From Promethearchaeati archaeon (GTDB taxonomy: Archaea; Asgardarchaeota; Heimdallarchaeia; Heimdallarchaeales; Heimdallarchaeaceae): 64,000 bases of DNA. Below are positions 21,246 to 58,038 of this stretch, piece by piece (the stretch's first letter is position 1; the number at the start of each line of letters is the position of its first letter). Location of the stretch: the NCBI GenBank assembly GCA_013166775.1, contig JABLTJ010000013.1, forward strand, positions 4,071-68,070, given 5' to 3'. Below the pieces are notes generated by a model. It saw only the letters and a program-made list of their open reading frames with translations. It was not told where the DNA came from and ran no database searches. The position numbers were made by a program, and so were the translations under genes.

Positions 21246-21473
21246 ATGATGGGTTTTTCAGAAATTAAAACCAAGAAATACTCTCTGTGGATGAAATATT
21301 TCATAATAGGTGCAAGTTGTGCAGCGTTGATATTCATAATAGTTGTTTCTATACTTTATTTCACTCTTAACCTATCAATTAGAAATTTGTTTATTTCGCT
21401 TTGTCTAGGGAATATCATATTAGGGATTATTCCTGGGCTTATTTCAAAAAAAGAAGAACTTTTTAGTTTTTAG
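21246..21473 (+). CDS. Small two-helix membrane protein (uncertain gene)
   Basis: 75-aa ORF with two hydrophobic helices. Nothing beyond ORF length and hydrophobicity supports it. Confidence 0.3.
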   Translation: MMGFSEIKTKKYSLWMKYFIIGASCAALIFIIVVSILYFTLNLSIRNLFISLCLGNIILGIIPGLISKKEELFSF

Positions 21474-21714
21474 GTTTTGCTTATTTAGGATCTTTGATTT
21501 GTAGCATTGTAGGTCTCTTACTAATAGGTTGGAGATTCAATTTGTATAGATTTTCATTCATAATTTAGTATTTATTTTTAGCAATATCGGAACTAATAAT
21601 CATAGCATTAATTACTCATCTTCTTCATTTTAGACACGAATCAAAAAAATGAAAAATCTACTTCTTTATATAGTGATAACTTTGCACTAAGATAGACTTA
21701 AAAGATAGGTTTAG

Positions 21715-24700
21715 GTGTGGATATTGTATAAGAACTCAATTGAGGTTATAGGCGCTCAAGAGAACAATTTACGTAATATCTCAGTTGAGATTCCACATGA
21801 TAAGTTAATTGTTATTTCGGGCATCTCTGGAAGTGGAAAGAGTTCACTTGCTTTTGATACAATTTATCTCGAAGCACAGAGAAGATATATGGAAACTTTA
21901 TCAGCTTATGCAAGGCAATTTATAGGTAATTTTGACAGACCGCAAGTTGAGCATATTGATGGTTTACGACCAACAATTTCTATTGATCAGAAAACTATAT
22001 CGAGGAATCCAAGAAGTACAGTTGGTACCCTCACTGAGATTTATGATTACATGAGAGTACTTTTTGCAAGAGTAGGAATACCTCATTGTCCAGATTGTAA
22101 AATTAGGATTGAAGCACAACCTTCAGATCAAGTAATTGAACAGATATTTGCATCTTTTGAAGGACAAAGGATCAAAATAGTTGCTCCAATTTTCGAGAAG
22201 AGGAAAGGTGAGTATAGAAAGGAATTAGCTCAATGGAAAGAAGATGGTTATGTCAGATTAATAGTTGATGGTAAAGAAGTGAACTTAGATGATGAAGAAG
22301 TTCAATTAGAGAGATATGTTGCTCATGATTTAGAAATTATTGTTGACAGGAATCGATGTGAAAGAAAGAATGAGCCTTTGATTCTTGATAGTGTCAACCT
22401 AGCACTCGAGCTCTCAAAAGGTAGGATTAAGATAATTGGAGAGAAAGAAGAAAGAGTATACTCAACAAAACTAGTCTGTCCAGAGTGCGGATTAGCTGTA
22501 AATGAATTCAATCCTAGAGACTTCTCGCACAATACAGCTGTTGGTGCTTGTAAGAGATGTAAAGGACTAGGACAAATTGCTGAGATATCTCCTCAAAAGT
22601 TCATAGTTAATCATGATCTTTCAATCGCTGATGGTGCCATTGCGACAATGACGAAGAACAAAAAACACATCACATATGCTTCTATAGGTTTGAAAAATAT
22701 CAATGTAATTGTCCAAGAACACGGATATGATATTAACACACCAATAAAGGATTTAACTGAAGATCAACTCGATAAACTACTTTATGGAACAGGTAGACAA
22801 GAATATCACTTGACATGGAACTGGGATAGTCAAGCAGCTAAATGGAGTGGGAAGGGTGAGTGGACCACTAGATGGAGAGGATTAATCCCAGCAACAATGG
22901 AAGCTTACTACAGACTTACGTCAGAACATAGGAAGCAAATATTAGAAGAGCTCATGGAACAAACAAAATGCCCTGATTGTAAGGGAATGAGACTCAAGCC
23001 CGAGAGTTTAGCTGTTTTGTTCAATGGGAAAAATATCTCTGAACTCAATAGATTAGAAATTGATGAGTGTTTAAAATTCTTCGAGGGAGTTAAGCTTACT
23101 AAAGAAGAGGAGATAATAGGGAAACCTCTACTAAAAGAAATTAAAAATAGATTATCATTCTTGTTGAAAGTAGGATTACATTATCTAACAATGAACAGAG
23201 CTGCGAGTGAGTTGAGCGGAGGAGAAGCTCAAAGAACAAGATTAGCAACTCAAATAGGTTCAAAGCTACAAGGAGTAAATTATGTCTTAGATGAGCCTTC
23301 AATAGGATTAGCTAATAGAGACAACCAAAAGCTGTTGAGTTCTCTGAAAACTCTCAGAGATGGAGGGAATACAGTCATAGTTGTTGAACATGATGAAGAT
23401 ACTCTTCGTTCAGCTGATCTGCTGTTAGATTTAGGTCCAGGAGCAGGAGATGATGGTGGAGAAGTACTATTCCTCATGGATCCAAAGGAATTATCTGAAA
23501 AAAATTCAAAGAATTCTATCACTGCAAAATATCTATTGGGATTAGATGAGATTGAGATACCTAAGAAAAGGAGAACAAGTAAAAAATTCCTTACTCTCAA
23601 AGGTGCATCTCATAATAACTTAAAGCAGATAGATGTAAGCATCCCTTTAGGAACATTCACATGTGTTACTGGAGTTTCAGGAAGTGGTAAGTCTTCTTTA
23701 GTTGCAGATACACTTTATCCAATTCTAGTAAATAAACTTCATAATGGAAAACAAAAACCAGGTCGATACAAGAGTATAGAAGGCTCAGAGAACATTGACA
23801 AAGTTGTCGTAATTGATCAATCACCTATAGGTAGAACGTCAAGATCTAATCCTGCAACCTATACAAAAGTAATGGATCATATTAGAGATTTGTTTGCAAC
23901 TATTCCAACAGCTAAGATTAGAGGGTATTCCAAAACTAGATTCAGTTTTAATACAAAATTAGGTAGATGTGAAGCGTGTAAAGGGCATGGTTATAATAAG
24001 ATAGAAATGACCCTTCTTCCCGACGTTGAAGTTGAATGTGAAATTTGCAAAAGCAAAAGATATGATGATGAGACTCTGAAAATCAAATATCAAGGTCATT
24101 CTATAGCTGACATACTTAACATGACTGTAAGTAGAGCAATGGGAGTGTTTGAAAATATACCTAAAATTCAGCGTATTTTGAAGACTTTAATTGATGTCGG
24201 ATTGGATTATATACAGCTCGGGCAATCAAGTACAACTATATCTGGTGGAGAAGCCCAGAGGATAAAACTTAGCAGAGAACTATCAAAGATATCTACAGGT
24301 AATACCCTGTATATCCTCGATGAATCGACAACGGGATTAAGTTTTGAAGATATTAAAAAGCTGTTAAATGTTCTTCAAAGATTGGTTGATAAGGGAAATA
24401 CAGTATTAATTATAGAGCATAATTTAGATGTCATCAAAGTAGCTGATTTTGTCATAGATTTAGGTCCTGATGGCGGAGAAGAAAATGGTGGGTATCTAGT
24501 AGATTTAGGTACTCCAGAAGAAATTCTTGAAAATGAGCTTTCATATACTGGACAAGCGTTGAAGAAAGTACTAACTGATGATTACATAGAGGAAGAAGTA
24601 GAACCTATAAAAATAGAAAAAGAGGATTTAGATCCATCAAAATATCTGTATGTGAGAGGAGCAACAAAGAATAATCTCAAAAGTATAAATTTAGACATTC

Positions 24701-27474
24701 CAAAAGAAAAACTTGTTGTAATCACAGGACCTAGCGGTTCAGGTAAAAGCTCTTTAGCTATAGATACTCTTTTTGCAGAAGGGCAAAGAAGGTTTGTAGA
24801 ATCATTAAGTAGTTATGCACGGCAGTTTCTTACAAAAGCTGAAAGAGCTGATGTTGATGATATAATTGGTTTGACACCCTCAATAGCTATAGATCAGCAT
24901 TCTATTTCTAAGAATCCAAGATCAATTGTTGCAACTACTACAGAAATTTATGATTATCTCCGACTTCTTTATGCAAAAGTGGGTATACCTCATTGTCCAG
25001 TATGCAATATTGTTTTAAAAAATAGAACGTCGGATGAAATAGCTAAATTAGTACTAAAGGAATATGAATCTGAAAACATAATTATCGCATCTTCTTTATC
25101 AAATGGCGAAGAAGTGAATATTAAAGAAACAATCAAGGAAATTCAAAAACAAGGATATAATAGAATTGTAATAGATGGGAAAGACTATCTAGTAGATGAA
25201 CAGATAAAAGTAAAAAAATCTTCCTCATTATCTGTAGTAATTGATAGAATAGAAGTGAATAAAGAAAACATATCTAGGACAGCTGAATCAATAGAAGCTG
25301 CAGTAAGTGTTGGCAAAGGGAGAGTTGAGATCTATTATAATGGAGAGAGAAGTATTTATTCAATAAATGCTGAATGTATAGATCATGAATATGAAGCTCC
25401 ATCTGAAATCCATCCAAGACTTTTCAGCTTTAATCACTATTCAGGAGCATGCTCAAATTGCACAGGGTTGGGAACAATAAGAAAATTTGATATAAGAAAG
25501 ATAGTCAAGAATTGGGATAAATCGATAAGTCAAGGCGCTATAGGTCCATATTCTTCTCAAAGAATGTCTAATCCTAACTCTTGGAGAAGAGCAATGCTTG
25601 ATTCTGTAGCTAAACATTTCGATTTCACAATGGATACACCAATGAAAGATTTAACTCCTCAACAACTGGATGGTTTATTTTACGGCTCAAAAGGTAAAGA
25701 TGTATCAATTAGAATCATTCGAGAAAGAGAAAAATCTTCTTCAGAATATACTAGAAGTGGACCATGGGAAGGACTCATTCAAAGATGGGTTACTTGGATG
25801 ACCACTGAAACTGAATCACGATACATTAGTCAAAGAAAAGAACAGATGCATCAATATTATAGCGAGTATAAATGCACAGATTGTAATGGACGAAAATTAA
25901 AAACAGAAGTTCTTGCGATAACAGTAGGAGATAAATCGATAAACGATCTTTCTACCTATGCAGTTGATGATTTTCTTGACTTCCTTAATACTTTGAAGCT
26001 TAATAAAAGAAGAGCAAAGATAGCGGATAGGATTATAGTTGAGTTAAAGAAAAGAGCTGAATATCTAACTGATGTGGGTTTGAGTTATCTTACTCTAGAT
26101 AGACGTTCAAGCACTTTATCTAATGGAGAAGCCCAAAGAATAAGACTCGCTTCACAGATTGGGAGTGGACTTATAGGTGTCACTTATGTCCTAGATGAAC
26201 CAACAATAGGTCTACACCCAAGAGATATAGATAAGCTGCTTACAACATTGAAGAGACTAAGAGATAATGGAAATCATGTTATCGTTGTTGAGCATGATGA
26301 CATCATAATTAAAGAATCAGATCACATGATTGAACTTGGCCCACTAGGTGGAGATCAAGGGGGGGATGTAGTTGCTGAAGGGAATACTACTAAACTTCTA
26401 CAGCGAGAAGATTCTTTGACTGCAAGCTATCTTTCTGGTTCAAAGAAAATTAAAACACCTAAGAATCGAAGGAAAGCGGAATCTTCTATTGAATTAAAAG
26501 GAGCATCTCAAAACAATTTGAAACAAATAGATGTTGAATTCGGAAAAGGAATATTTACTGCAGTAACTGGTGTCAGTGGGGCAGGTAAATCGTCTCTTGT
26601 AATTGACACACTTCAGAAAGGACTTGAAAAGAATATTCAAGGCAAAAGAACAGAAGTTGGTAAATATAAGTCACTTACAAATTTTGAAGGTATAAACAAA
26701 GTAATAGTCGTTGATCAATCCTCTTTGAGTAAATCAAGAAGGTCAAATCCATCTACGTATTTAGGAGTACAAGATAATATAAGAGATTTCTTTGCTCTTT
26801 TACCAGAATCAAAAGCTAGAGGTTTCACACCAGGTCATTTCAGTTTCAACACATACAAAGGTCAATGTAATGAGTGTCGAGGATTAGGACATAAAAGAAT
26901 AGAGTTGCTCTTTCTTTCAGATGTTTGGGTTTTATGCCCGAGTTGTAAAGGGAAGAAATACAAAAAACCTATTCTAACAGCAAGATATAGAAAAAAATCT
27001 ATTGCTGATATTTTAGAGATGACTATAGAGGAAGCATGTGAACTATTTTCGAACATAGAAAATATACGTAGACCTCTTCAATTAGCAGTAGATGTAGGGC
27101 TAGGATATCTACGAATGGGACAACCTACAACTACAATAAGTGGAGGGGAAGCAGAAAGGTTGAAAATAGCTAGAGAATTGTCAAAGAAAACACATGATAA
27201 AAGTATCTATTTATTGGATGAACCTTCACAAGGATTACACTTCTACGATATTGAAAAACTTGTTAATATTCTGCATCGTTTAGCAGATGAAGGAAACTCA
27301 ATTGTTGTTATTGATCATAATATGGACATAATAAAGAACGCAGATAGGATTATAGATTTAGGTCCTGAAGGTGGGACTAGAAATGGTGGATATTTAGTAG
27401 CTAAAGGAACACCTGAGGAGATTATCAATCAACAGGAAGGGTATACATGGGAGTATCTTAAGCAAGCTTCCTAG
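21715..27474 (+). CDS. uvrA: Tandem UvrA-UvrA fusion (two complete excinuclease ABC subunit A units in one polypeptide)
   Basis: 1919 aa from a GTG start. Unit 1 (~21715..24573) and unit 2 (~24643..27474) each carry two Walker A sites (GISGSGKSS/GVSGSGKSS and GPSGSGKSS/GVSGAGKSS). Each also has two ABC signatures, the UvrB-binding-type and insertion-type segments, and a C-terminal Cx2C...Cx2C zinc module. Confidence 0.9.
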   Translation: MWILYKNSIEVIGAQENNLRNISVEIPHDKLIVISGISGSGKSSLAFDTIYLEAQRRYMETLSAYARQFIGNFDRPQVEHIDGLRPTISIDQKTISRNPRSTVGTLTEIYDYMRVLFARVGIPHCPDCKIRIEAQPSDQVIEQIFASFEGQRIKIVAPIFEKRKGEYRKELAQWKEDGYVRLIVDGKEVNLDDEEVQLERYVAHDLEIIVDRNRCERKNEPLILDSVNLALELSKGRIKIIGEKEERVYSTKLVCPECGLAVNEFNPRDFSHNTAVGACKRCKGLGQIAEISPQKFIVNHDLSIADGAIATMTKNKKHITYASIGLKNINVIVQEHGYDINTPIKDLTEDQLDKLLYGTGRQEYHLTWNWDSQAAKWSGKGEWTTRWRGLIPATMEAYYRLTSEHRKQILEELMEQTKCPDCKGMRLKPESLAVLFNGKNISELNRLEIDECLKFFEGVKLTKEEEIIGKPLLKEIKNRLSFLLKVGLHYLTMNRAASELSGGEAQRTRLATQIGSKLQGVNYVLDEPSIGLANRDNQKLLSSLKTLRDGGNTVIVVEHDEDTLRSADLLLDLGPGAGDDGGEVLFLMDPKELSEKNSKNSITAKYLLGLDEIEIPKKRRTSKKFLTLKGASHNNLKQIDVSIPLGTFTCVTGVSGSGKSSLVADTLYPILVNKLHNGKQKPGRYKSIEGSENIDKVVVIDQSPIGRTSRSNPATYTKVMDHIRDLFATIPTAKIRGYSKTRFSFNTKLGRCEACKGHGYNKIEMTLLPDVEVECEICKSKRYDDETLKIKYQGHSIADILNMTVSRAMGVFENIPKIQRILKTLIDVGLDYIQLGQSSTTISGGEAQRIKLSRELSKISTGNTLYILDESTTGLSFEDIKKLLNVLQRLVDKGNTVLIIEHNLDVIKVADFVIDLGPDGGEENGGYLVDLGTPEEILENELSYTGQALKKVLTDDYIEEEVEPIKIEKEDLDPSKYLYVRGATKNNLKSINLDIPKEKLVVITGPSGSGKSSLAIDTLFAEGQRRFVESLSSYARQFLTKAERADVDDIIGLTPSIAIDQHSISKNPRSIVATTTEIYDYLRLLYAKVGIPHCPVCNIVLKNRTSDEIAKLVLKEYESENIIIASSLSNGEEVNIKETIKEIQKQGYNRIVIDGKDYLVDEQIKVKKSSSLSVVIDRIEVNKENISRTAESIEAAVSVGKGRVEIYYNGERSIYSINAECIDHEYEAPSEIHPRLFSFNHYSGACSNCTGLGTIRKFDIRKIVKNWDKSISQGAIGPYSSQRMSNPNSWRRAMLDSVAKHFDFTMDTPMKDLTPQQLDGLFYGSKGKDVSIRIIREREKSSSEYTRSGPWEGLIQRWVTWMTTETESRYISQRKEQMHQYYSEYKCTDCNGRKLKTEVLAITVGDKSINDLSTYAVDDFLDFLNTLKLNKRRAKIADRIIVELKKRAEYLTDVGLSYLTLDRRSSTLSNGEAQRIRLASQIGSGLIGVTYVLDEPTIGLHPRDIDKLLTTLKRLRDNGNHVIVVEHDDIIIKESDHMIELGPLGGDQGGDVVAEGNTTKLLQREDSLTASYLSGSKKIKTPKNRRKAESSIELKGASQNNLKQIDVEFGKGIFTAVTGVSGAGKSSLVIDTLQKGLEKNIQGKRTEVGKYKSLTNFEGINKVIVVDQSSLSKSRRSNPSTYLGVQDNIRDFFALLPESKARGFTPGHFSFNTYKGQCNECRGLGHKRIELLFLSDVWVLCPSCKGKKYKKPILTARYRKKSIADILEMTIEEACELFSNIENIRRPLQLAVDVGLGYLRMGQPTTTISGGEAERLKIARELSKKTHDKSIYLLDEPSQGLHFYDIEKLVNILHRLADEGNSIVVIDHNMDIIKNADRIIDLGPEGGTRNGGYLVAKGTPEEIINQQEGYTWEYLKQAS
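24574..24642 (+). other. Acidic inter-unit linker of the UvrA-UvrA fusion
   Basis: TDDYIEEEVEPIKIEKEDLDPSK lies between the end of unit 1 (..GQALKKVL) and the start of unit 2 (YLYVRGATKNNLK). Confidence 0.7.
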
Positions 27475-29660: not shown

Positions 29661-29704
29661 GATATTTGAGAAATTTGTAACTAAATGATATAAATGTGGT
29701 AAGT

Positions 29705-30202
29705 ATGGATAAGGGAAGAATAAATGAAGTAGGAGAGTTATTGGAAGTTGCCCCTTCTAATTTAAAAGAATCTAAATTTAAAGTATTAGTAAAACGACTT
29801 ACTTATCCTCTGGCCCAGATTGCATTTTTTATATTTTCTATTATTTCAGGAATTTTACTTGGATATTGGGAAAGTCAAATACAAATAGGTTACCCTTTTA
29901 ATCAAATCACAAGAATTTATAGAGCAGGGATTCCGACTCTCTTGATTATCCATAGTGGAAATACGCTATTTTCGATAAAAAATCGCAAGAAATATCGTAT
30001 TTCAAATTTCCTAACAGGATCTATAGTTATTATTAATCTGATACTGTCTGCGATTAGTTTCTTTTTTATCTATAAATTTATGGATGCAAATCTAGGTCTT
30101 AGTGCTTCAGTTCGTTATGGTACTTTCCATAAGAATATAGATAAAATAATTATTTCAAAGATTTCTTCAACTATGAAAGAGGTGTATTATTTAGAAGTGT
30201 GA
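29705..30202 (+). CDS. Three-TM protein P1, paralogue family of unknown function
   Basis: ATG at 29705 (the track offers GTG at 29696). N-terminal INEVGELLEVAPSNLKESK, three hydrophobic helices, a GYP loop, a basic loop SIKNRKKY and a C-terminal RYGTFHK are all shared with P2/P3. Confidence 0.6.
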   Translation: MDKGRINEVGELLEVAPSNLKESKFKVLVKRLTYPLAQIAFFIFSIISGILLGYWESQIQIGYPFNQITRIYRAGIPTLLIIHSGNTLFSIKNRKKYRISNFLTGSIVIINLILSAISFFFIYKFMDANLGLSASVRYGTFHKNIDKIIISKISSTMKEVYYLEV

Positions 30203-30208
30203 TTTAAT

Positions 30209-30664
30209 ATGAACGATGAGAAAATAAACGAAGTTGGAAACTTGTTGGAAATAGATTCTTCAGATATTCAAGAATCAAAACAAAAAAAAATCTGGAAAAA
30301 ACTAATTTTCCCTGTTGTTCAAATTTCAACTATCGTCCTTTCAGCAATCTTAGGTGCTTTAATGGGATACTGGGAAAATAACAGATCATCAGGTTATCCT
30401 GCTTCATGGCTTTACCCAAGGATTTTCTTTTTAGGTCCGATAGCGCTTTTTGGTTTCATTGTAGGAAACATATCAATATCCTCAAAGAACTATAAAAAAA
30501 TTGGATTAAGAGGTGTTTATGCAGCTATTATTATTTTTATGAATATATTGATCTCTGTAGCAAGCTTAGCTTTTACTTATATGGCAATTCGAACTACACC
30601 ACCAGTGATTCTAGGTAGTTATGTAATGTATGGTACTTATAAAAAGCCAAAATATGGAAAATAA
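30209..30664 (+). CDS. Three-TM protein P2, paralogue of P1/P3
   Basis: 151 aa with INEVGNLLEIDSSDIQESK, GYWEN..SGYP, SSKNYKKIGLRG and YGTYKKP. It starts 7 nt after the P1 stop. Confidence 0.65.
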   Translation: MNDEKINEVGNLLEIDSSDIQESKQKKIWKKLIFPVVQISTIVLSAILGALMGYWENNRSSGYPASWLYPRIFFLGPIALFGFIVGNISISSKNYKKIGLRGVYAAIIIFMNILISVASLAFTYMAIRTTPPVILGSYVMYGTYKKPKYGK

Positions 30665-31142
30665 GTGGTTGAATTTGAATAAAGAGAAATTAGATGAAAC
30701 TGGAAAAGTGTTGAATGTTGATTCTTCAGATATTCAAAAATCAAAATCAAAACAAATCTTGAAGAAACTTATTTTTCCTCTTGTTCAGGTTTCAACTATC
30801 ATTCTTTCAGCAACCTCAGGAGCTTTACTGGGATATTTGGAGAAAAAAGAACCATCAGGTTATCCATATGCATGGGATTTCCCGAAGATTTACTTTTTTG
30901 GCCCAATGGCACTTCTAGGTTTTAGTACAGGGAATATATTAATATCTTCAAAAAACTATAAGAAAACCGGATTAAGAGGTACTTCTGCTAGCATTATTGT
31001 TTTTCTAAGTATAGTTATCTCAGTAGCAAGCTTAGTTTTTATTTATATGGCTGTTCAAAATCCACCACCTCCTCTTCAAGGATACGTTCCGCCATTTAAT
31101 GTTTCAATAGATTATGATACCTTTAGAAAGAGAAATTTATAA
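30654..31142 (+). CDS. Three-TM protein P3, paralogue of P1/P2
   Basis: I prefer the ATG at 30654 (MENKWLNLNKEKLDETGKVLNVDSSDIQKSK) to the track start at 30630; it overlaps the P2 stop. SSKNYKKTGLRG and DYDTFRKR are present. By hand count, about 100 of 120 aligned nt are identical to P2 around the first TM helix. Confidence 0.65.
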   Translation: MENKWLNLNKEKLDETGKVLNVDSSDIQKSKSKQILKKLIFPLVQVSTIILSATSGALLGYLEKKEPSGYPYAWDFPKIYFFGPMALLGFSTGNILISSKNYKKTGLRGTSASIIVFLSIVISVASLVFIYMAVQNPPPPLQGYVPPFNVSIDYDTFRKRNL

Positions 31143-31152
31143 TGTGATTAAT

Positions 31153-32217
31153 ATGAAATATAATCTTGATTGCGCAGTTTGGGAATTAACTCTTGAATGT
31201 AATCTTAAGTGTAAACATTGTGGTTCTAGTGCAGGAAAGGCTAGAAAAAACGAGTTAACTACTCAAGAATGCTTCAATCTTTGCGAAGATTTATCAGAAG
31301 TTGGTTGTAGAGAAGTTAGTTTAATGGGTGGGGAACCTTTTGTAAGAGAAGATTGGAATGAAATAGCCTGGTGTGTTAAAGATTTAGGGATGGATTTAGC
31401 TTTTGTAAGTAATGGAATACTCATTCCTCAAGTAATAGAGAAGCTTAATCTATTAGAACCTGTAGTAGTTGGAGTTTCTCTTGATGGTGTAAAAGAAACA
31501 CATGATTATATTAGAAGAAAAGGATCTTATGACGCAGCTCATCAAGCTATAGAACTACTCTTGGAAAATGATATTCAAACGACTGTAATAACCACAATAA
31601 GTAAAACAAATTTCAAAGAATTATTGGAATTGAAGAAACTCATTTATGGAAAAGGAATAAACTGGCAAATTCAAGTATGTATGCCATTTGGATATTTTGA
31701 TCCATCTTTAGTAATTAGTCAAGAAGAATATTATGCTTCTGCTATGTTTATTGTTTCAGAACGGATAAAAAACAAATTCAAAGACATGCCTGTGGTAGGA
31801 GCACATTGTTATGGTTATTTCTCTCATTTACTTCCAAGAAACAATCGATGGGATGGTTGTACTGCAGGAAGATCCACAGTTGGTTTAACTTCAGAAGGTT
31901 CAGTAGTTGGGTGTTTATCAATGGGGAATAACCAATTTATTGAAGGTAATGTGAGAGATAGAAGTTTCAAAGAGATCTGGGAAGATCCTAATTCTTTTGC
32001 TTATAATAGAAATTTCAAACGAGATGATTTCGGTGAAAATTGCATTGATTGTTTTTACGGAGAAAAATGTAAAGGTGGATGTAACTCAACATCTTATCAC
32101 CTTACAAAGAAATTTCATAACACACCTTTATGTTTAAGAAAAATAGAAGAAAAGTTGTTTGATGTGAAGATTCCTAAGAAAGAAAGATCCAATGTCCAAG
32201 AAGTGAAATCATTATGA
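31153..32217 (+). CDS. Radical SAM enzyme with C-terminal SPASM domain
   Basis: ECNLKCKHC is the CxxxCxxC motif (31198..31221). GGEPF is present. Seven SPASM cysteines are present: C249, C267, C310-x2-C-x5-C-x3-C323 and C340, numbered from the track start at 31114. I prefer the ATG at 31153. Confidence 0.85.
   Translation: MKYNLDCAVWELTLECNLKCKHCGSSAGKARKNELTTQECFNLCEDLSEVGCREVSLMGGEPFVREDWNEIAWCVKDLGMDLAFVSNGILIPQVIEKLNLLEPVVVGVSLDGVKETHDYIRRKGSYDAAHQAIELLLENDIQTTVITTISKTNFKELLELKKLIYGKGINWQIQVCMPFGYFDPSLVISQEEYYASAMFIVSERIKNKFKDMPVVGAHCYGYFSHLLPRNNRWDGCTAGRSTVGLTSEGSVVGCLSMGNNQFIEGNVRDRSFKEIWEDPNSFAYNRNFKRDDFGENCIDCFYGEKCKGGCNSTSYHLTKKFHNTPLCLRKIEEKLFDVKIPKKERSNVQEVKSL
31858..32133 (+). 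other. SPASM auxiliary Fe-S cluster cysteine signature within the rSAM gene
   Basis: CTAGRSTVGLTSEGSVVGC ... CIDCFYGEKCKGGC ... C follows the canonical spacing Cx2Cx5Cx3C. Confidence 0.8.
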
Positions 32218-33500
32218 TAAAATTGAATCTAGGTTGTGGTATTTTTTACAAACCAGGATATATAAACATTGATCTTGTTGAAGATAAAATTGCTGATCAG
32301 ATTGCTGACGTTACCAACCTTCCTTATGAGGAAAATAGTGTAGATCTAATAGAAGCATCTCATATAATTGAACATTTTGATGTAAATCAAGTTCCTTTTG
32401 TTCTTTCTGAATGGTACAGAATTTTGAAACCAGGTGGGAAACTAGAGATTGAAATACCAAATTTGTTAAAATCTGTAATTAAACTGAAATTAAGTAAGTA
32501 CAGAAAACAATTATTAACTTTGAAATTTCTGTTTGGAGTAGATTATAGAGGGAATATTCACAAGATAGGTTTTACAAGATTATTCTTAAAAAAATCTCTT
32601 TCCAGAACAGGTTTCAAAAAAATTAGAAGAAAGAAACAAAGAAGCTTCAAAGAAGAAAGAGGTATGAGATACCAGGCAAGCAAACCATTAGATGCTGATT
32701 TATCAAAAAAGAAACATTTTATTACTACTTTCCGTTCAGAAATCAACTCTAATTTTGAAATAAAAGAGACTTTATTCTATGAAGTTTTAGAGAACAACTG
32801 TTTCTTATCGCTTTTTAATATTCTACCTGAAAATATTCAGAAATTTTTCAACACATTTAGGATAACTAATTTCTGTGCTTCTCTATCAATAATTCATCCT
32901 AAATTATCTAAAATCTTTCTCGAGATATTTCCTGAAAATCAGACAAATGAAATCAACAAAGAAGTATTAGACTATCTTGATGAAATTAAATTTCAATCTC
33001 TACTTCTAACTGATTGGATAAAGTGGAGAAAAGATCAATTTAATTTTCCCATTTCTATAACCAAATTCTTCAATCACTGGACATGGAAAATTAATCAAAT
33101 GTTAAACAAAAAAACTGATTTTAAGAAAATGTTGAGCTACTTAACGTCTTTAGAACAAAACTCTAATGAATTTTTCTCAATTGAGATTATTAATATTCAA
33201 TCACTCAGACTAGCTAATCAAGGAATAAGAGCTTTTGAAAAGGAGATTTTTGTAGAAGCTAAAAAGCTTCTTGAAGAGAGTCTTAGAATGAATCCTTCAA
33301 ATATTGAAGCAAATCTAAATCTTGCACGTCTTCTTAGAAAACTAGATCACAATCCAAATCAAATATCTAACTTATATGAATTTGTTCTGTCTGATTTATC
33401 TAATAGGAGAATTAAAAGGAAAATAAGGAAAGAGTATCAATTGATTCTCCTTAACAAGGAGAAAAAAGAAGAATTGAGTCCAATTCAATTGAGAAGTTAA
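32214..33500 (+). CDS. Class I SAM-dependent methyltransferase fused to a long helical/TPR-like C-terminal region
   Basis: 428 aa. LNLGCG is motif I. The Methyltransf_11-type core includes VDLIEASHIIEHF and ILKPGGKLEIEIP. The C-terminal ~230 aa are helical and include EAKKLLEESLRMNPSNIEANLNLARLL. Its ATG overlaps the rSAM TGA as ATGA. Confidence 0.75.
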   Translation: MIKLNLGCGIFYKPGYINIDLVEDKIADQIADVTNLPYEENSVDLIEASHIIEHFDVNQVPFVLSEWYRILKPGGKLEIEIPNLLKSVIKLKLSKYRKQLLTLKFLFGVDYRGNIHKIGFTRLFLKKSLSRTGFKKIRRKKQRSFKEERGMRYQASKPLDADLSKKKHFITTFRSEINSNFEIKETLFYEVLENNCFLSLFNILPENIQKFFNTFRITNFCASLSIIHPKLSKIFLEIFPENQTNEINKEVLDYLDEIKFQSLLLTDWIKWRKDQFNFPISITKFFNHWTWKINQMLNKKTDFKKMLSYLTSLEQNSNEFFSIEIINIQSLRLANQGIRAFEKEIFVEAKKLLEESLRMNPSNIEANLNLARLLRKLDHNPNQISNLYEFVLSDLSNRRIKRKIRKEYQLILLNKEKKEELSPIQLRS

Positions 33501-55599: not shown

Positions 55600-55683
55600 A
55601 GGAACAAACTTTTAGATAATTATAAGAATTTTCCAAGATAACAAGAAAAAACTGAAATAATCATGTGAAGGAGATTATCATAG

Positions 55684-56517
55684 ATGATATATGAAATCGA
55701 AAGAAAAGACTATCCAAAAGTATTGAAACTTTTTAGTCAATTATCAGATGATCATATGTCAGTAGTTGTAGCTTTAGAGCATAATTATCCAAGTAGAATT
55801 TTTGTAGATAATCTAGATTCACCAAAGAGTGGTTTAATTTATCTTGGTAAAAGAACATTAGGTTTCTCAGGTAGAAGTGATAACAAGCAATTTAATGATG
55901 AACTTAAGGAATTATTGAACAAAGAAATTCTTCCTCTCTTAAAAAACGAATTAAAAGTTAGAGAAGTAATCATCAGGTATGATGATAGCTGGGAAGATGA
56001 ATTGAAGTCTTTTTTGAACGATTTAGTAGAACATCAACTTGGTAATTATATTTTCAGTGACTTGAAATACGATTATAACAAAAATAAACTCCCAGATGGT
56101 TATGAGTATGTTGCTATCGATTCAGATTTGTTGAAACGAGAGGATCTAAAGAATTTCTACATTGTCGAAAGGTGGGTGAGAGGTTGTTACTTAGGTACAG
56201 AAGATTATTTATCCCGAGGTTTTGGTTTCTGTATAATCCATGAAAAGAAAGAAATCGCTAGCGTCTGTTTTTGTAATTACATATCCAAAGATAGGAAAAG
56301 ATGTGAGATAGGTATAATCACCTCTGAAGAACATAGAAAAAAAGGTTTAGCAAAAAATCTTGTCTCTTATACCGTTTCTCATGGTTTGAAACTCAATATT
56401 CAGAGAATAGACTGGCAATCACGATTAAGTAATATAGGCAGTATAAAAACTGCTGAAGCAGTTGGTTTTCAACTTGAAAAAACCTACATAGGATATGTCT
56501 TGGAATATACTCAATGA
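55684..56517 (+). CDS. GNAT family N-acetyltransferase (two-domain type)
   Basis: 277 aa. The C-terminal domain carries the acetyl-CoA motif-A-like HRKKGLAKNLVS. Confidence 0.6.
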   Translation: MIYEIERKDYPKVLKLFSQLSDDHMSVVVALEHNYPSRIFVDNLDSPKSGLIYLGKRTLGFSGRSDNKQFNDELKELLNKEILPLLKNELKVREVIIRYDDSWEDELKSFLNDLVEHQLGNYIFSDLKYDYNKNKLPDGYEYVAIDSDLLKREDLKNFYIVERWVRGCYLGTEDYLSRGFGFCIIHEKKEIASVCFCNYISKDRKRCEIGIITSEEHRKKGLAKNLVSYTVSHGLKLNIQRIDWQSRLSNIGSIKTAEAVGFQLEKTYIGYVLEYTQ

Positions 56518-56553
56518 TATATAAGATTGTCAATGTAACATATTAGTTGTTTT

Positions 56554-58038
56554 CTAAATACTAGGTGTTCCCATTTCTTTATGTAAGTGTTTTTGATCTG
56601 TAATTGTTATAGGCTCTACCCAGTGAACTGGAGTTACTTCAATTAATCTTCCTTTCACATTCAAGAAATCTCCTAAGATTTTAGGTTTATCCTTTTGCTT
56701 TCTCTGATAAGGTCTTTTCAAAATCAGAGCGAATAGCCATTCAGCTGAAAAGAGATATCTTCCTTTTTCCCAAATCCAAAGAATGAAAAACCATAATCCC
56801 ATCTCGAGAGCAATTAAAAAGAATGTCCAACCAATGTTCAATCCTCCTGTAGTCCTAAATCCTGGATCAGTCCATCCGAAAAGTTGTGTTATACCCCAAA
56901 GAGCAACTCTAAGAACTGCTTGAATTGATGCAAATGAATAAACTGATAAACAGAGAAAACCTGCTCTTCGACTAAATCTGGATATTCTTAATCTTCGTTC
57001 CCAATTTACTTTTCTGCTAAACTCCATACTGGCCATCAAACTTAGAACAACAATTAACAGCATTCCAATTGTTACAAATACAAACCATGTTGGATGAACA
57101 TGAAAATCTACTAACATGAATGGATCTTCGGGAATCTTTTCCACAACAAATAACCAGAAAGCGCCAAAAGCCATTGTGAACCCTGCAATTCCATATCCCC
57201 ATGATAAGAATTTTTTCTTATTCGGAGGTTTTTCTTGAGCAATAAAGATTCCTAGTATCGATCCTACCGCACTATATGCAAAATGAGGTAACAAAGGTGA
57301 TTCCCGAGCATTGAACTGATTTCCAATCATCCGCAGAATGTAATCCCACCATCCTTTATCTCCAATTTTATCTAGATGTTCTTCTGTATGCAAATTTACT
57401 CCCCAGAAAGTCATTGAAGCTTCATGAATAGCTGGAGCTGGGAAGATGAACAAGCAACCAACGACAGCGAACACTATTGCCATAACTATAGGTTTCTTTG
57501 TTTTCTCATTAGAAGTTAAGAAGAAGAACAATACTGAAGAAATCATAATAGCCCAAGCAATATTAGCAAACTGATCTGCATGGTAAATGTTTTGCCATTC
57601 TAGACTTGCAGTTCCTGTTGTTACCCACTCTAATGATGGACCCCATTGAGCAAGGAATACGTAAAAGAACATTGCCCACATCCATAGGAAAAGCCCTTTT
57701 GTAAACTCTTGAGCAAGAATAACTCTCCTTGGAACACCTCTTCTCAGCTTAGCAAACATGATAAACATGTGAATTGCTGCACTCATAAGAAGGAATAATC
57801 CTCTCCAATGACCAAAAACAACTATCAATCCCATGAGAATATAACCTGCTAAAGTTAATTCACCAGGATTTGTTTCAGCTACTCGTTGAACTTGACTAAC
57901 AAGCATAAATGTGTGAACCACCAAATTGCCTAGTATAGCCCACCCTCGTAGAATATCAAAGGAGATAATTCGTTCAGCCATGATATTTTGTTCTGTCCTT
58001 AGGGTTATAAAAACATTATCCGAAGAAGAAAGAGACAA
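56554..58038 (-). CDS. Polytopic membrane protein, DUF1624/HGSNAT-like acyltransferase family (tentative)
   Basis: 494 aa with about 11 helices. The N-terminal ISFDILRGWAILGNLVVH resembles the slD.lRG...h signature of that family. Confidence 0.4.
   Translation of the reverse strand: MSLSSSDNVFITLRTEQNIMAERIISFDILRGWAILGNLVVHTFMLVSQVQRVAETNPGELTLAGYILMGLIVVFGHWRGLFLLMSAAIHMFIMFAKLRRGVPRRVILAQEFTKGLFLWMWAMFFYVFLAQWGPSLEWVTTGTASLEWQNIYHADQFANIAWAIMISSVLFFFLTSNEKTKKPIVMAIVFAVVGCLFIFPAPAIHEASMTFWGVNLHTEEHLDKIGDKGWWDYILRMIGNQFNARESPLLPHFAYSAVGSILGIFIAQEKPPNKKKFLSWGYGIAGFTMAFGAFWLFVVEKIPEDPFMLVDFHVHPTWFVFVTIGMLLIVVLSLMASMEFSRKVNWERRLRISRFSRRAGFLCLSVYSFASIQAVLRVALWGITQLFGWTDPGFRTTGGLNIGWTFFLIALEMGLWFFILWIWEKGRYLFSAEWLFALILKRPYQRKQKDKPKILGDFLNVKGRLIEVTPVHWVEPITITDQKHLHKEMGTPSI

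Follow-up and report, generated by a model that had tools for sequence, protein, structure and literature searches.

A double-length uvrA gene of Heimdallarchaeaceae and its split counterpart in other Asgard archaea

Canonical UvrA is a single chain of ~940 residues and works as a homodimer. One gene in the window (the whole 64-kb stretch of DNA analyzed here, from a metagenome-assembled draft genome) raises the question of what becomes of such a dimer when two UvrA units share one polypeptide: is the fusion real, how unequal are its halves, where did they come from, and how might they work together? The answer bears on bacterial excision repair, in which a symmetric UvrA dimer comes first and one UvrB on one strand comes last, the symmetry-breaking between the two being open (PMC11985968, PMC7835731). 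Unequal UvrA subunits, whether encoded by fused or by coupled genes, would be ready-made tools for this question.

One uninterrupted gene with two complete UvrA units

Translation of 21715..27474 on the forward strand yields a single open frame of 1,919 codons with a stop only at its end, as the original prediction of one 1919-aa ORF had it. Two complete UvrA units had been recognized in this ORF, and each indeed matches NF001503, the UvrA equivalog model of NCBIfam, end to end. The database copy of the protein has 1,916 aa and starts at TTG 21724, three codons downstream of GTG 21715. The gene, its putative upstream signal, and its main parts are listed below.

21665..21672 (+), TTTATATA, TATA-box-like element 43-52 nt 5' of the two candidate starts; a possible archaeal promoter
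21715..27474 (+), tandem uvrA gene, from the GTG start at 21715 and with the stop codon counted in; the database copy runs from TTG 21724
21730..24576 (+), unit 1, N-type class I UvrA, residues 6-954; complete, the more canonical half
24577..24639 (+), linker of 21 residues (955-975), 10 of them acidic, DDYIEEEVEPIKIEKEDLDPS, the gap between the two profile envelopes
24640..27465 (+), unit 2, C-type class I UvrA, residues 976-1917; complete, the more diverged half

An acidic linker of ~23 aa had been placed at 24574..24642, at most one residue off per end from the 21 residues given here.

A stop codon or frameshift lost between two uvrA genes during sequencing or assembly would also create such a frame. 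The draft, metagenome-assembled state of the source genome favors this explanation, as do the unfused neighboring pairs in another lineage of the phylum, one of which has a junction only a few bases from fusion. However, a survey of related genomes, which had been suggested as a check, recovered a continuous tandem ORF of 1917-1963 aa in 15 independently assembled genomes of Heimdallarchaeaceae (Asgard archaea; family name as given by the source databases), 10 from the genus and 5 from the rest of the family. Two of these (G055 and G095, with an ortholog of 1929 aa) are single-contig genomes. Nineteen orthologous protein clusters from several sources, at 61-100% identity, tell the same story, every one being 1915-1921 aa long. 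The linker also looks like a coding segment of conserved length: its sequence differs among orthologs, its length is kept at 21-24 residues, and it mostly terminates in LDP(S/A), often with an acidic residue just before. Because one ORF spans the junction in all 15 of these genomes, the single-contig ones included, the fused uvrA is a genuine gene, and an artifact is hardly conceivable. Across two families of fused UvrAs, whose halves do not group together in trees, linker length is 19-32 residues. Such constancy, within the orthologs and in both families, fits a fixed intramolecular span.

No repair gene lies beside the tandem uvrA; its neighbors in the window encode a pirin, an AHSA1-like protein, a solute-binding protein, and others. 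The Rfam scan of the 64-kb window gave no match reaching gathering scores. The original prediction also remarked that the window contains neither uvrB nor uvrC. This is correct for the window and uninformative, since both genes are encoded elsewhere in the genome, adjacent to each other on another contig (C22:55602-59278, with uvrB at 55602-57545; one pair). The wider survey for uvrB and uvrC found one pair each in four relatives as well (G055, G095, G033, and G001), in which the tandem halves are the sole UvrA matches (E <= 1e-30).

A shared core and unequal motifs in the two units

To define how far each unit agrees with ordinary UvrA, we compared both with profiles, structures, and single-length homologs. 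Unit 1 scores 1293.7 bits against NF001503 (model positions 3-941) and 1237.6 bits against TIGR00630; unit 2 scores 1160.4 bits (positions 6-939) and 1112.6 bits, respectively, the cut-offs being 1147 and 729.8. By these scores, their NBD motifs, their PF17760 and PF17755 domains (above cut-offs), and their zinc modules, the units belong to class I, and the tandem departs from that class in not being a homodimeric single chain of ~940 residues. In a PDB search, the N half matched class I structures at E = 0 and the C half at 3e-270 to 2e-244; for each half, the alignment is full-length with 9gxk, 2r6f, and 3zqj and falls into two segments with 3pih.

Each half thus has the same modules as the canonical class I homodimer (E. 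coli UvrA; 9gxk, 2r6f/3uwx, 3pih, and 3zqj): two NBDs, a UvrB-interaction domain, an insertion domain, three zinc modules, and the wedge and interface residues. The class I dimer also has uvrB and uvrC as partner genes, and the genome of the tandem has both. In contrast to this dimer, the tandem is one polypeptide of 1916-1919 residues with two units that are 44% identical, and its subunits cannot dissociate into free monomers. Nor can the particle be symmetric, because its four ATP sites and two UvrB-interaction domains are non-equivalent.

The core is preserved throughout. All four Walker A sites that had been called intact are present (GISGSGKSS, GVSGSGKSS, GPSGSGKSS, and GVSGAGKSS), and the Walker A Lys, Walker B Asp-Glu, signature Ser, Q-loop Gln, and H-loop His are kept in 4/4 ATP sites. 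The Cys/His ligand pairs of the three zinc modules align in unit 1 and unit 2. Both halves retain the DNA wedge residues Tyr62, Gln65, and Phe66 (PMC12796330), as well as the ATP-binding-I dimer-interface residues listed in the same paper (PMC12796330): Arg54, Tyr/Phe55, Phe66, Gly80, Leu81, Pro83, Ile85, Leu507, and Val510. Two interface differences between the halves are fixed: residue 55 is Tyr in unit 1 and Phe in unit 2, and Ser82 is replaced by Arg in unit 1 and by Thr in unit 2.

The domains and motifs of unit 1 that matter for what follows are:

22117..22437 (+), UvrB-interaction domain (PF17760, 97.6 bits)
22201..22215 (+), RKGEY motif, retained, within the PF17760 domain
22594..22947 (+), insertion (DNA-binding) domain (PF17755, 64.1 bits)
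23287..23322 (+), NBD-I Walker B followed by GLANRD; GLH His to Ala
24316..24351 (+), NBD-II Walker B followed by GLSFED; GLH His to Ser

Those of unit 2 are:

25027..25338 (+), UvrB-interaction domain (PF17760, 76.3 bits)
25090..25119 (+), SSLSNGEEVN where the RKGE motif is expected, within the PF17760 domain
25372..25389 (+), zinc module 2 with CIDH (CxxH), an ordinary variant
25489..25836 (+), insertion (DNA-binding) domain (PF17755, 74.5 bits)
26116..26139 (+), signature I, LSNGEAQR; Gly to Asn beside the signature Ser, in the unit 2 distal ATP site
26569..26595 (+), NBD-II Walker A, GVSGAGKSS; Ser to Ala, distal site
26713..26736 (+), Q-loop region, DQSSLSKS for DQSPIGRT, distal site
27136..27159 (+), signature II, ISGGEAER; Gln to Glu, unit 2 proximal site
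27307..27327 (+), NBD-II H-loop region, VIDHNMD; IEHN to IDHN, distal site

We scored motif conservation in 191 single-length UvrAs against 19 ortholog clusters of the tandem. Every motif that had been read from the sequence (GLANRD, DESTTGLSF, LSNGE, GGEAER, IDHN, and CIDH) was confirmed, and the accompanying claim that such substitutions are unusual holds for most of them: six are fixed in 19/19 orthologs and are absent from the 191 singles or occur there once. In unit 1, these are GLH to GLA in NBD-I (0/191 singles; His in 191/191) and GLH to GLS in NBD-II (Ser in 0/191, His in 190/191, and Ala in 1/191). In unit 2, they are LSGGE to LSNGE, Ser to Ala in Walker A2, GGEAQR to GGEAER, and IEHN to IDHN, each with 19/19 orthologs and 0/191 singles. 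The claim fails for the CxxH zinc ligand pair, which is ordinary (His occupies that position in 93/191 single UvrAs), and for the Pro-to-Ser change in DESTTG of unit 1, which is sporadic (just 3/19 orthologs). Within the four ABC modules, the motif variants adjoin catalytic residues and none falls at a catalytic position.

Two features set the halves apart. The C half departs from invariant UvrA positions at 45-52 sites and the N half at 16-25, i.e., 2-3 times more often in C, and four conserved changes collect in one site of unit 2. This is the distal ATP site, which in UvrA is composed of ATP-binding II and signature I (PMC12796330). The changes are LSNGE, GAGKS, IDHN, and the Q-loop flank, where the Gln is retained and the flanking Pro and Arg, invariant in singles, are mostly gone. 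The other feature is the RKGE motif of the UvrB-interaction domain. Its Lys-Gly is at least 97% conserved among single UvrAs, and the motif is replaced in all the C-type and downstream units that we examined, surviving only in N-type and upstream units. Our literature search found no contact role for the RKGE motif or the GLH histidine, and we therefore infer the functional meaning of their changes from conservation alone.

We suggest that the canonical UvrB-docking surface would be on unit 1 only and that the unit 2 distal ATP site may be kinetically retuned yet active. The original prediction that the halves can specialize is upheld in that they are distinct ancient types with fixed differences, and tempered in that all four ATP sites are catalytically complete. 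Because every catalytic residue is kept in these four sites, none is demonstrably impaired, and functional specialization of the halves would mean tuning rather than a dead site.

Two unit types, fused and split

A phylogeny of the separate halves, proposed as a check on the original prediction, points to distinct old paralogs. The N half falls in an N-half clade (95/92, UFBoot/SH-aLRT) and the C half in a mirror C-half clade (100/98), and FastTree on 96 rows recovers the N-half and C-half clades likewise. A recent internal duplication was considered and discarded: with 44% identity, the halves belong to distinct mirror clades, and a tree constrained to join them loses 97 log-likelihood units. 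By the AU test, an internal duplication specific to the lineage is rejected (p = 3.7e-6); the group tested had been chosen with the tree already in view. The N-type/C-type tandem lineage comprises Heimdallarchaeaceae, other Asgard archaea, Bathyarchaeia, Chloroflexota, and some Planctomycetota. Further Asgard families show 2-4 UvrA matches.

The two unit types also occur apart. At least 21 genomes of one Asgard family (f10) carry two adjacent uvrA genes. These are separate, either abutting or overlapping, and lie in a uvrB-uvrA-uvrA-uvrC operon. Among eight loci, uvrB immediately precedes the pair in 8/8, and uvrC immediately follows it in at least 5/8; the one uvrA-uvrA junction that we read at base level is a GTGA stop/start overlap. 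Members of the f10 protein clusters bear mostly Thorarchaeota names at NCBI (e.g., MBS3795442.1 and MBS3795443.1). The upstream uvrA is sister to the N halves (89/96, UFBoot/SH-aLRT), the downstream uvrA is sister to the C halves (90/95), and on both the N and the C side of the tree the pairs branch as the sister group of the entire fused clade. Support for these sister relations is good, not maximal (89-90% ultrafast bootstrap).

By this phylogeny, the unit 1 and unit 2 types are old paralogs, orthologous to the members of the split pair. Since they are still two genes in f10, the fused gene would represent a UvrA heterodimer in Rosetta-stone form; alternatively, the pair would be a split version of it. 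N-type and C-type units as neighboring genes between uvrB and uvrC are what would be expected if the units act as a heterodimer; the split pair could instead form two different homodimers.

Pair and tandem agree in the types of their two units and in unit order, in keeping RKGE in the upstream/N-type unit only, and in the GPSGSGKS Walker A1 common to f10 downstream genes and the tandem C half. They differ in that the pair has no linker and is set between uvrB and uvrC, whereas the uvrA of the window is a fused, solitary gene. The pair is also without LSNGE, GGEAER, and IDHN and without both unit 1 GLH losses of the tandem clade; its GLS at NBD-II belongs to the downstream unit, that of the tandem to unit 1.

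As a sequence finding, the fusion is not new. Double-length UvrA is widespread, annotated, and in the literature, with at least 8,000 examples in databases and one sentence on a planctomycete UvrA fusion (Front Microbiol 2021, PMC8567305); beyond that sentence, our literature search found nothing on heterodimeric or split UvrA. What is new here is the presence of both unit types as separate neighboring genes within the repair operon of mostly Thorarchaeota-named genomes. The double UvrAs of Chlamydiia (NF001885, PRK00635, 1809 positions) and Planctomycetota have the same head-to-tail fusion, with linkers of 23-32 residues, and are annotated as excinuclease ABC subunit A. Their halves do not group with those of the tandem, and sampled single UvrAs lie between the two fused groups, which points to a separate origin. 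The planctomycete proteins differ further by an additional tail of 200-480 residues. Membership of the tandem in the chlamydial equivalog NF001885 was rejected (1357 bits against a cut-off of 3054, with halves in separate clades).

Class II UvrAs (D. radiodurans UvrA2, DrrC, and Ecm16; 2vf7 and 7sh1) are UvrA paralogs that share the ABC core and coexist with a canonical UvrA. They have no UvrB-interaction domain and do not depend on UvrB for their action (PMC9328131). A class II identity for the tandem was set aside, as PF17760 is found in both halves; the matches of these halves to 2vf7 and 7sh1 in the PDB search were far weaker than those to class I structures.

A candidate pseudo-heterodimer and its alternatives

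From its sequence and phylogeny, we consider it probable that the tandem is a covalent UvrA pseudo-heterodimer serving as an excision-repair damage sensor. An N-type and a C-type class I unit, joined through a short flexible linker into a single chain of about 218 kDa, would fold back head to head via their ATP-binding-I domains, like the subunits of an ordinary UvrA dimer. Its four ATP sites would be non-equivalent, and the resulting covalent pseudo-heterodimer would pass damaged DNA to the UvrB and UvrC proteins, whose genes lie on a different contig. The original prediction had likewise proposed that the fusion hard-wires a pseudo-heterodimer; the distinct unit types and the split-pair genes strengthen this part, and the fusion architecture itself has turned out not to be new.

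A bolder extension is possible, though we would sooner bet against it: UvrA in this lineage may be an obligate heterodimer that predates the fusion, encoded first by coupled operon genes and later by one chain, and loading UvrB from one side. With the docking motif only on the N-type unit and a retuned distal site on the C-type unit, UvrB would load on one defined side. If true, one-sided loading would be a built-in route from a symmetric UvrA2B2 to an asymmetric pre-incision complex with one UvrB, and the hand-off would occur without full separation of the UvrA subunits. A covalent UvrA dimer tests the need for such separation, and mutations can be placed in any single one of its four ATP sites or two UvrB-docking domains without producing mixed dimers. 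The fused and split Asgard forms make a matched natural pair for experiments of this kind. They also record the remodeling of a horizontally acquired bacterial repair system in the archaeal lineage nearest to eukaryotes.

How the units pair and what unit 2 does could each be read otherwise. Heterodimeric ABC transporters have a degenerate ATP site, and unit 2 may by analogy be a largely non-catalytic structural or regulatory partner whose distal site binds ATP and hardly turns it over. Four fixed changes in the motifs of one site, none seen in 191 singles, and the excess of departures from invariant positions in the C half (45-52 against 16-25) speak for this reading. The same site nevertheless has the complete set of catalytic residues named above, from the Walker A Lys to the H-loop His, and the changes are conservative (Ser to Ala within GxxGxGKS, Glu to Asp), so we regard a non-catalytic unit 2 as unlikely. 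Less likely still is that the units of one chain do not pair together and that separate chains associate instead, either through like units (N-N and C-C) or with the N unit of one bound to the C unit of another; the resulting dimer or larger assembly of tandems would have two DNA-binding grooves. Self-complementary ATP-binding-I interface residues are kept in both halves, so that the sequence is compatible with homotypic pairing, and the PDB search returned no tandem UvrA structure, all matched UvrA chains having <=993 residues. Against inter-chain pairing stand the tight linker lengths (21-24 among orthologs, 19-32 across the two fused families) and the positions that touch their own counterpart or its neighbor in a homodimer and are fixed differently in the two halves (Tyr55 versus Phe; Ser82 to Arg versus Thr). 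The head-to-head arrangement within one chain is thus the pairing that we favor.

There remains the role of the tandem among the UvrA proteins of its genome, which has two further UvrA paralogs. One is a stand-alone UvrA of 965 aa on contig C78 that scores 1150.9 bits, just over the NF001503 cut-off of 1147. Its presence, and the lack of repair genes adjacent to the tandem gene, would suit a division in which this separate single-length UvrA serves UvrB and UvrC and the tandem has a UvrB-independent, class II-like role. We think this very unlikely. Unlike class II proteins, the tandem has a UvrB-interaction domain in both units; its orthologous split pair sits in a uvrB-uvrA-uvrA-uvrC operon; and it is the sole UvrA beside uvrB-uvrC in four relatives. 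The C78 protein, for its part, carries substitutions at the wedge positions (Tyr to Trp, Gln to Thr, and Phe to Arg) and is changed at 72 invariant positions, 11 of them within residues 131-231, which span the UvrB-interaction domain. Its type was matched in only four genomes of the genus (G000, G005, G015, and G016). The three UvrA proteins of the source genome may nevertheless divide labor among themselves.

The double-length uvrA gene and its two units

The original prediction had read a stretch of this contig as a single-chain double UvrA encoded in one open frame. This reading holds, and the gene and its linker are as follows:

21715..27474, + strand: tandem uvrA, one open frame of 1919 codons
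24577..24639, + strand: linker, residues 955-975, 21 residues (10 of them acidic) separating the profile envelopes of the two units

The database copy starts three codons downstream, at TTG 21724, and is 1916 aa long. In a profile search with the class I UvrA equivalog (NCBIfam NF001503), both halves exceeded the cut-off of 1147 bits: unit 1 (the N half) scored 1293.7 bits over model positions 3-941 and unit 2 (the C half) scored 1160.4 bits over positions 6-939. Both accessory domains are present in each, namely the Pfam UvrB-interaction domain (97.6 bits in the N half, 76.3 bits in the C half) and the insertion/DNA-binding domain (64.1 and 74.5 bits, respectively). Each half aligns over its full length with the solved class I UvrAs 9gxk, 2r6f, and 3zqj; with another class I structure, 3pih, the alignment falls into two stretches. 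By these measures of sequence, both halves are complete class I UvrAs.

A continuous tandem frame is present in ten genomes of the same genus and in five from another three genera of the family; of these 15 genomes, two are single contigs, in which the frame is 1929 aa. We also collected 19 orthologous protein clusters (61-100% identity, all 1915-1921 aa), assigned, where a source is named, to Candidatus Heimdallarchaeaceae, an Asgard archaeal family. The recurrence of the same unbroken frame rules out an assembly artefact, and repeat collapse is no concern because the units are only 44% identical to each other. The tandem uvrA is a real, conserved, and well-supported gene.

The architecture itself is already known and is no discovery. 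A search limited to long proteins returned at least 8000 double-length UvrA relatives; those named come from Asgard archaea, Bathyarchaeia, Planctomycetota, Chlamydiia, and Chloroflexota and are annotated as excinuclease ABC subunit A. The chlamydial double UvrA has its own NCBIfam model of 1809 positions, but the tandem described here scored 1357 bits against it, under the cut-off of 3054, and we rejected membership of that type. A 2021 paper (PMC8567305) already notes the planctomycete fusion. Our literature search brought up no tandem UvrA that had been studied biochemically or structurally, and the UvrA chains matched in the PDB were all of 993 residues or fewer, none of tandem length.

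Origin of the halves and an unfused uvrA pair

Whether the gene arose by recent internal duplication, a question raised with the original prediction, was addressed with three trees of the separated halves (FastTree with 96 rows, a quick IQ-TREE run, and a careful IQ-TREE run). In all three, unit 1 fell within an exclusively N-half clade and unit 2 within a mirror-image C-half clade. The two clades hold identical sets of groups:

Heimdallarchaeaceae orthologues
Asgard/Bathyarchaeia proteins of 1960 aa
bacterial proteins, including those of Chloroflexota and some Planctomycetota

Constraining the N and C halves of the orthologues to one clade was rejected (p-AU 3.7e-6, for a group chosen after the tree had been seen). 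Together, the mirror clades and this test reject a recent internal duplication and argue that the fusion predates these lineages. The chlamydial and large planctomycete tandems form N and C clades of their own, and sampled single UvrAs intervene between them and the present lineage, which suggests a second, independent origin for those tandems. Among single-length proteins, the best matches reached 51-55% identity with the N half and 45-48% with the C half; anything closer was a contig-end fragment of the tandem, and these searches found no close free-standing relative of either half.

The new piece is an unfused orthologous pair of the two unit types. We surveyed 151 genomes of this phylum and found, in at least 21 members of one Asgard family (f10), a pair of adjacent, same-strand uvrA genes. 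Exact look-ups of three pair proteins led mostly to NCBI records named "Candidatus Thorarchaeota archaeon", where the two genes have consecutive accession numbers. In the eight pair loci that we fetched, the two uvrA frames abut or overlap; at one (L011), the first gene's stop codon and the second gene's start codon overlap within the sequence GTGA. In 8/8 loci the pair is immediately preceded by the 3' end of uvrB, and in at least five it is immediately followed by the 5' end of uvrC. The arrangement in genome G096, with all four genes on the same strand, is:

1383313-1385253: uvrB
1385334-1388138: upstream uvrA
1388177-1390990: downstream uvrA
1391050-1392768: uvrC

In the careful tree, the upstream f10 genes branch as the sister group of the N-half clade (ultrafast bootstrap/SH-aLRT 89/96) and the downstream genes as that of the C-half clade (90/95); a second tree also supports this placement. 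By these sister relations and the operon setting, the tandem gene is the fused counterpart of a coupled paralogous uvrA pair within an excision-repair operon. The tree is compatible with either order, fusion first or split first. The proposal that the fusion acts as a pseudo-heterodimer is strengthened by these split orthologues.

Asymmetry between the units

Every motif variant listed in the original prediction was found in the sequence. To judge how distinctive each is, we counted motif states across 191 ordinary single-length UvrAs and the 19 orthologue clusters.

Motif changes fixed in the orthologues (change; unit; orthologues with the change; single UvrAs with the canonical residue)
GLH to GLA after Walker B1; unit 1; 19/19; 191/191
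GLH to GLS after Walker B2; unit 1; 19/19; 190/191
LSGGE to LSNGE; unit 2; 19/19; 191/191
Walker A2 Ser to Ala; unit 2; 19/19; 191/191
IEHN to IDHN; unit 2; 19/19; 191/191
GGEAQR to GGEAER; unit 2; 19/19; 191/191

These six changes are distinctive, but two of the variants listed in the original prediction carry no weight: the CxxH ligand state is ordinary (His in 93/191 single UvrAs), and the Pro-to-Ser change in DESTTG occurs in just 3/19 orthologues. In addition, the Pro and Arg of the second Q-loop flank (DQSPIGRT) are mostly gone from unit 2. Fixed departures at positions invariant in single UvrAs number 45-52 in the C half and 16-25 in the N half, whatever the reference set.

The GLH histidine, which from alignment with ABC Walker B and D-loop motifs we take to be the D-loop position, is lost from both modules of unit 1. 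The proximal ATP site is formed by ATP-binding I and signature II, and the distal site by ATP-binding II and signature I (PMC12796330); by this definition, LSNGE, GAGKS, IDHN, and the altered Q-loop flank all lie in the distal site of unit 2, and GGEAER in its proximal site. Since no loss of a catalytic residue was seen in any of the four ATP sites, we read the changes as tuning, not inactivation.

The RKGE motif of the UvrB-interaction domain, whose Lys-Gly is at least 97% conserved among single UvrAs, is kept in all N-type or upstream units and lost in all C-type or downstream units examined. Judged from this distribution, the RKGE asymmetry predates the fusion-or-split event. We also compared the GLH motif after Walker B2 between f10 loci (L011-L016, L019, and L020) and the tandem gene (24316-24351 and 27214-27249). 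In each pair or fusion of the archaeal groups, one unit, and only one, carries Ser or Ala in place of this His. That unit is the downstream (or C) one in the 1960-aa Asgard group and the Thorarchaeota-named pairs, and the N unit in the clade studied here. The Chloroflexota member retains the His in both units.

Partner genes and other UvrA-like genes

The genome encodes one uvrB and one uvrC, which are neighbours on contig C22. In four related genomes, two of them single-contig, a search at E <= 1e-30 matched no UvrA other than the two halves of the tandem, and each genome has one uvrB-uvrC pair; in these four, on gene content, UvrB and UvrC must be served by the tandem. Both units retain Tyr62, Gln65, and Phe66, the wedge residues inserted into the DNA duplex, as well as the ATP-binding-I residues that make the dimer interface in a UvrA structure (PMC12796330). 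UvrA content across the class is patchy: tandem genes occur in this family and one other, and sister families of the order have one canonical UvrA of ~970-1000 aa, which scores far higher (1390-1460 bits). The distribution points to replacement of UvrA within the class or to its separate acquisition.

We infer that the chain folds back so that units 1 and 2 pair head to head via ATP-binding I, with the linker (21-24 residues in the orthologues, 19-32 across the two fused families) bridging the distance between the end of unit 1 and the start of unit 2. Published complexes show each UvrB touching two protomers, at the docking domain of one and at signature II of its partner, so the two UvrB positions on a tandem particle would differ. 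At the first, UvrB would meet unit 1's canonical docking domain plus signature II from unit 2; at the second, it would meet the diverged docking domain that unit 2 provides. In kinetic studies, the proximal and distal ATP sites play different parts in damage discrimination (PMC6486640, PMC7835731), and a retuned distal site in one unit might give a one-sided response to damage.

The same genome contains other UvrA-like genes:

C78:7334-10231 (locus L003, 1495-4389), - strand: stand-alone UvrA paralogue, 965 aa
C97:4877-9808 (locus L021), + strand: second tandem UvrA-like gene, 1643 aa
C103:17547-18293 (locus L006), + strand: 249-codon frame

The C78 paralogue (1150.9 bits, barely over the equivalog cut-off) has lost the wedge (LTAWARTRL instead of LSAYARQFL) and the RKGE motif. 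It departs at 72 positions invariant in single UvrAs, 11 of them in residues 131-231, a range spanning its UvrB-interaction domain. It forms a long branch in trees and is matched in just four genomes of the genus; one member of its cluster is named Heimdallarchaeaceae. The C97 tandem looks like a class II-like double UvrA by its domains and motifs: no UvrB-interaction domain is recognisable in either unit, the insertion domain is absent from unit 1 and weak (35 bits) in unit 2, and the signature motifs are altered (LSRGESQR and LSAGESER). Similar frames are present in a few genomes of the genus. The C103 frame shares 59% identity with the final 234 residues of the C78-type paralogue, with no UvrA remnant seen upstream. 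Short frames like it turn up in three further genomes of the genus; it represents either a truncated copy or a small gene in its own right.

Elsewhere in the window, the 540-base gap 5' of the tandem uvrA holds a hydrophobic-rich open frame of ~75 codons (21246-21473, + strand), shorter than the ORF-listing threshold applied. At 29696-33500 (+ strand), three successive small to medium ORFs (168, 151, and 170 aa), none with a Pfam match, precede genes for a SPASM-domain radical SAM enzyme and, after it, a methyltransferase bearing a TPR-like tail, a layout reminiscent of a peptide-modification cluster.
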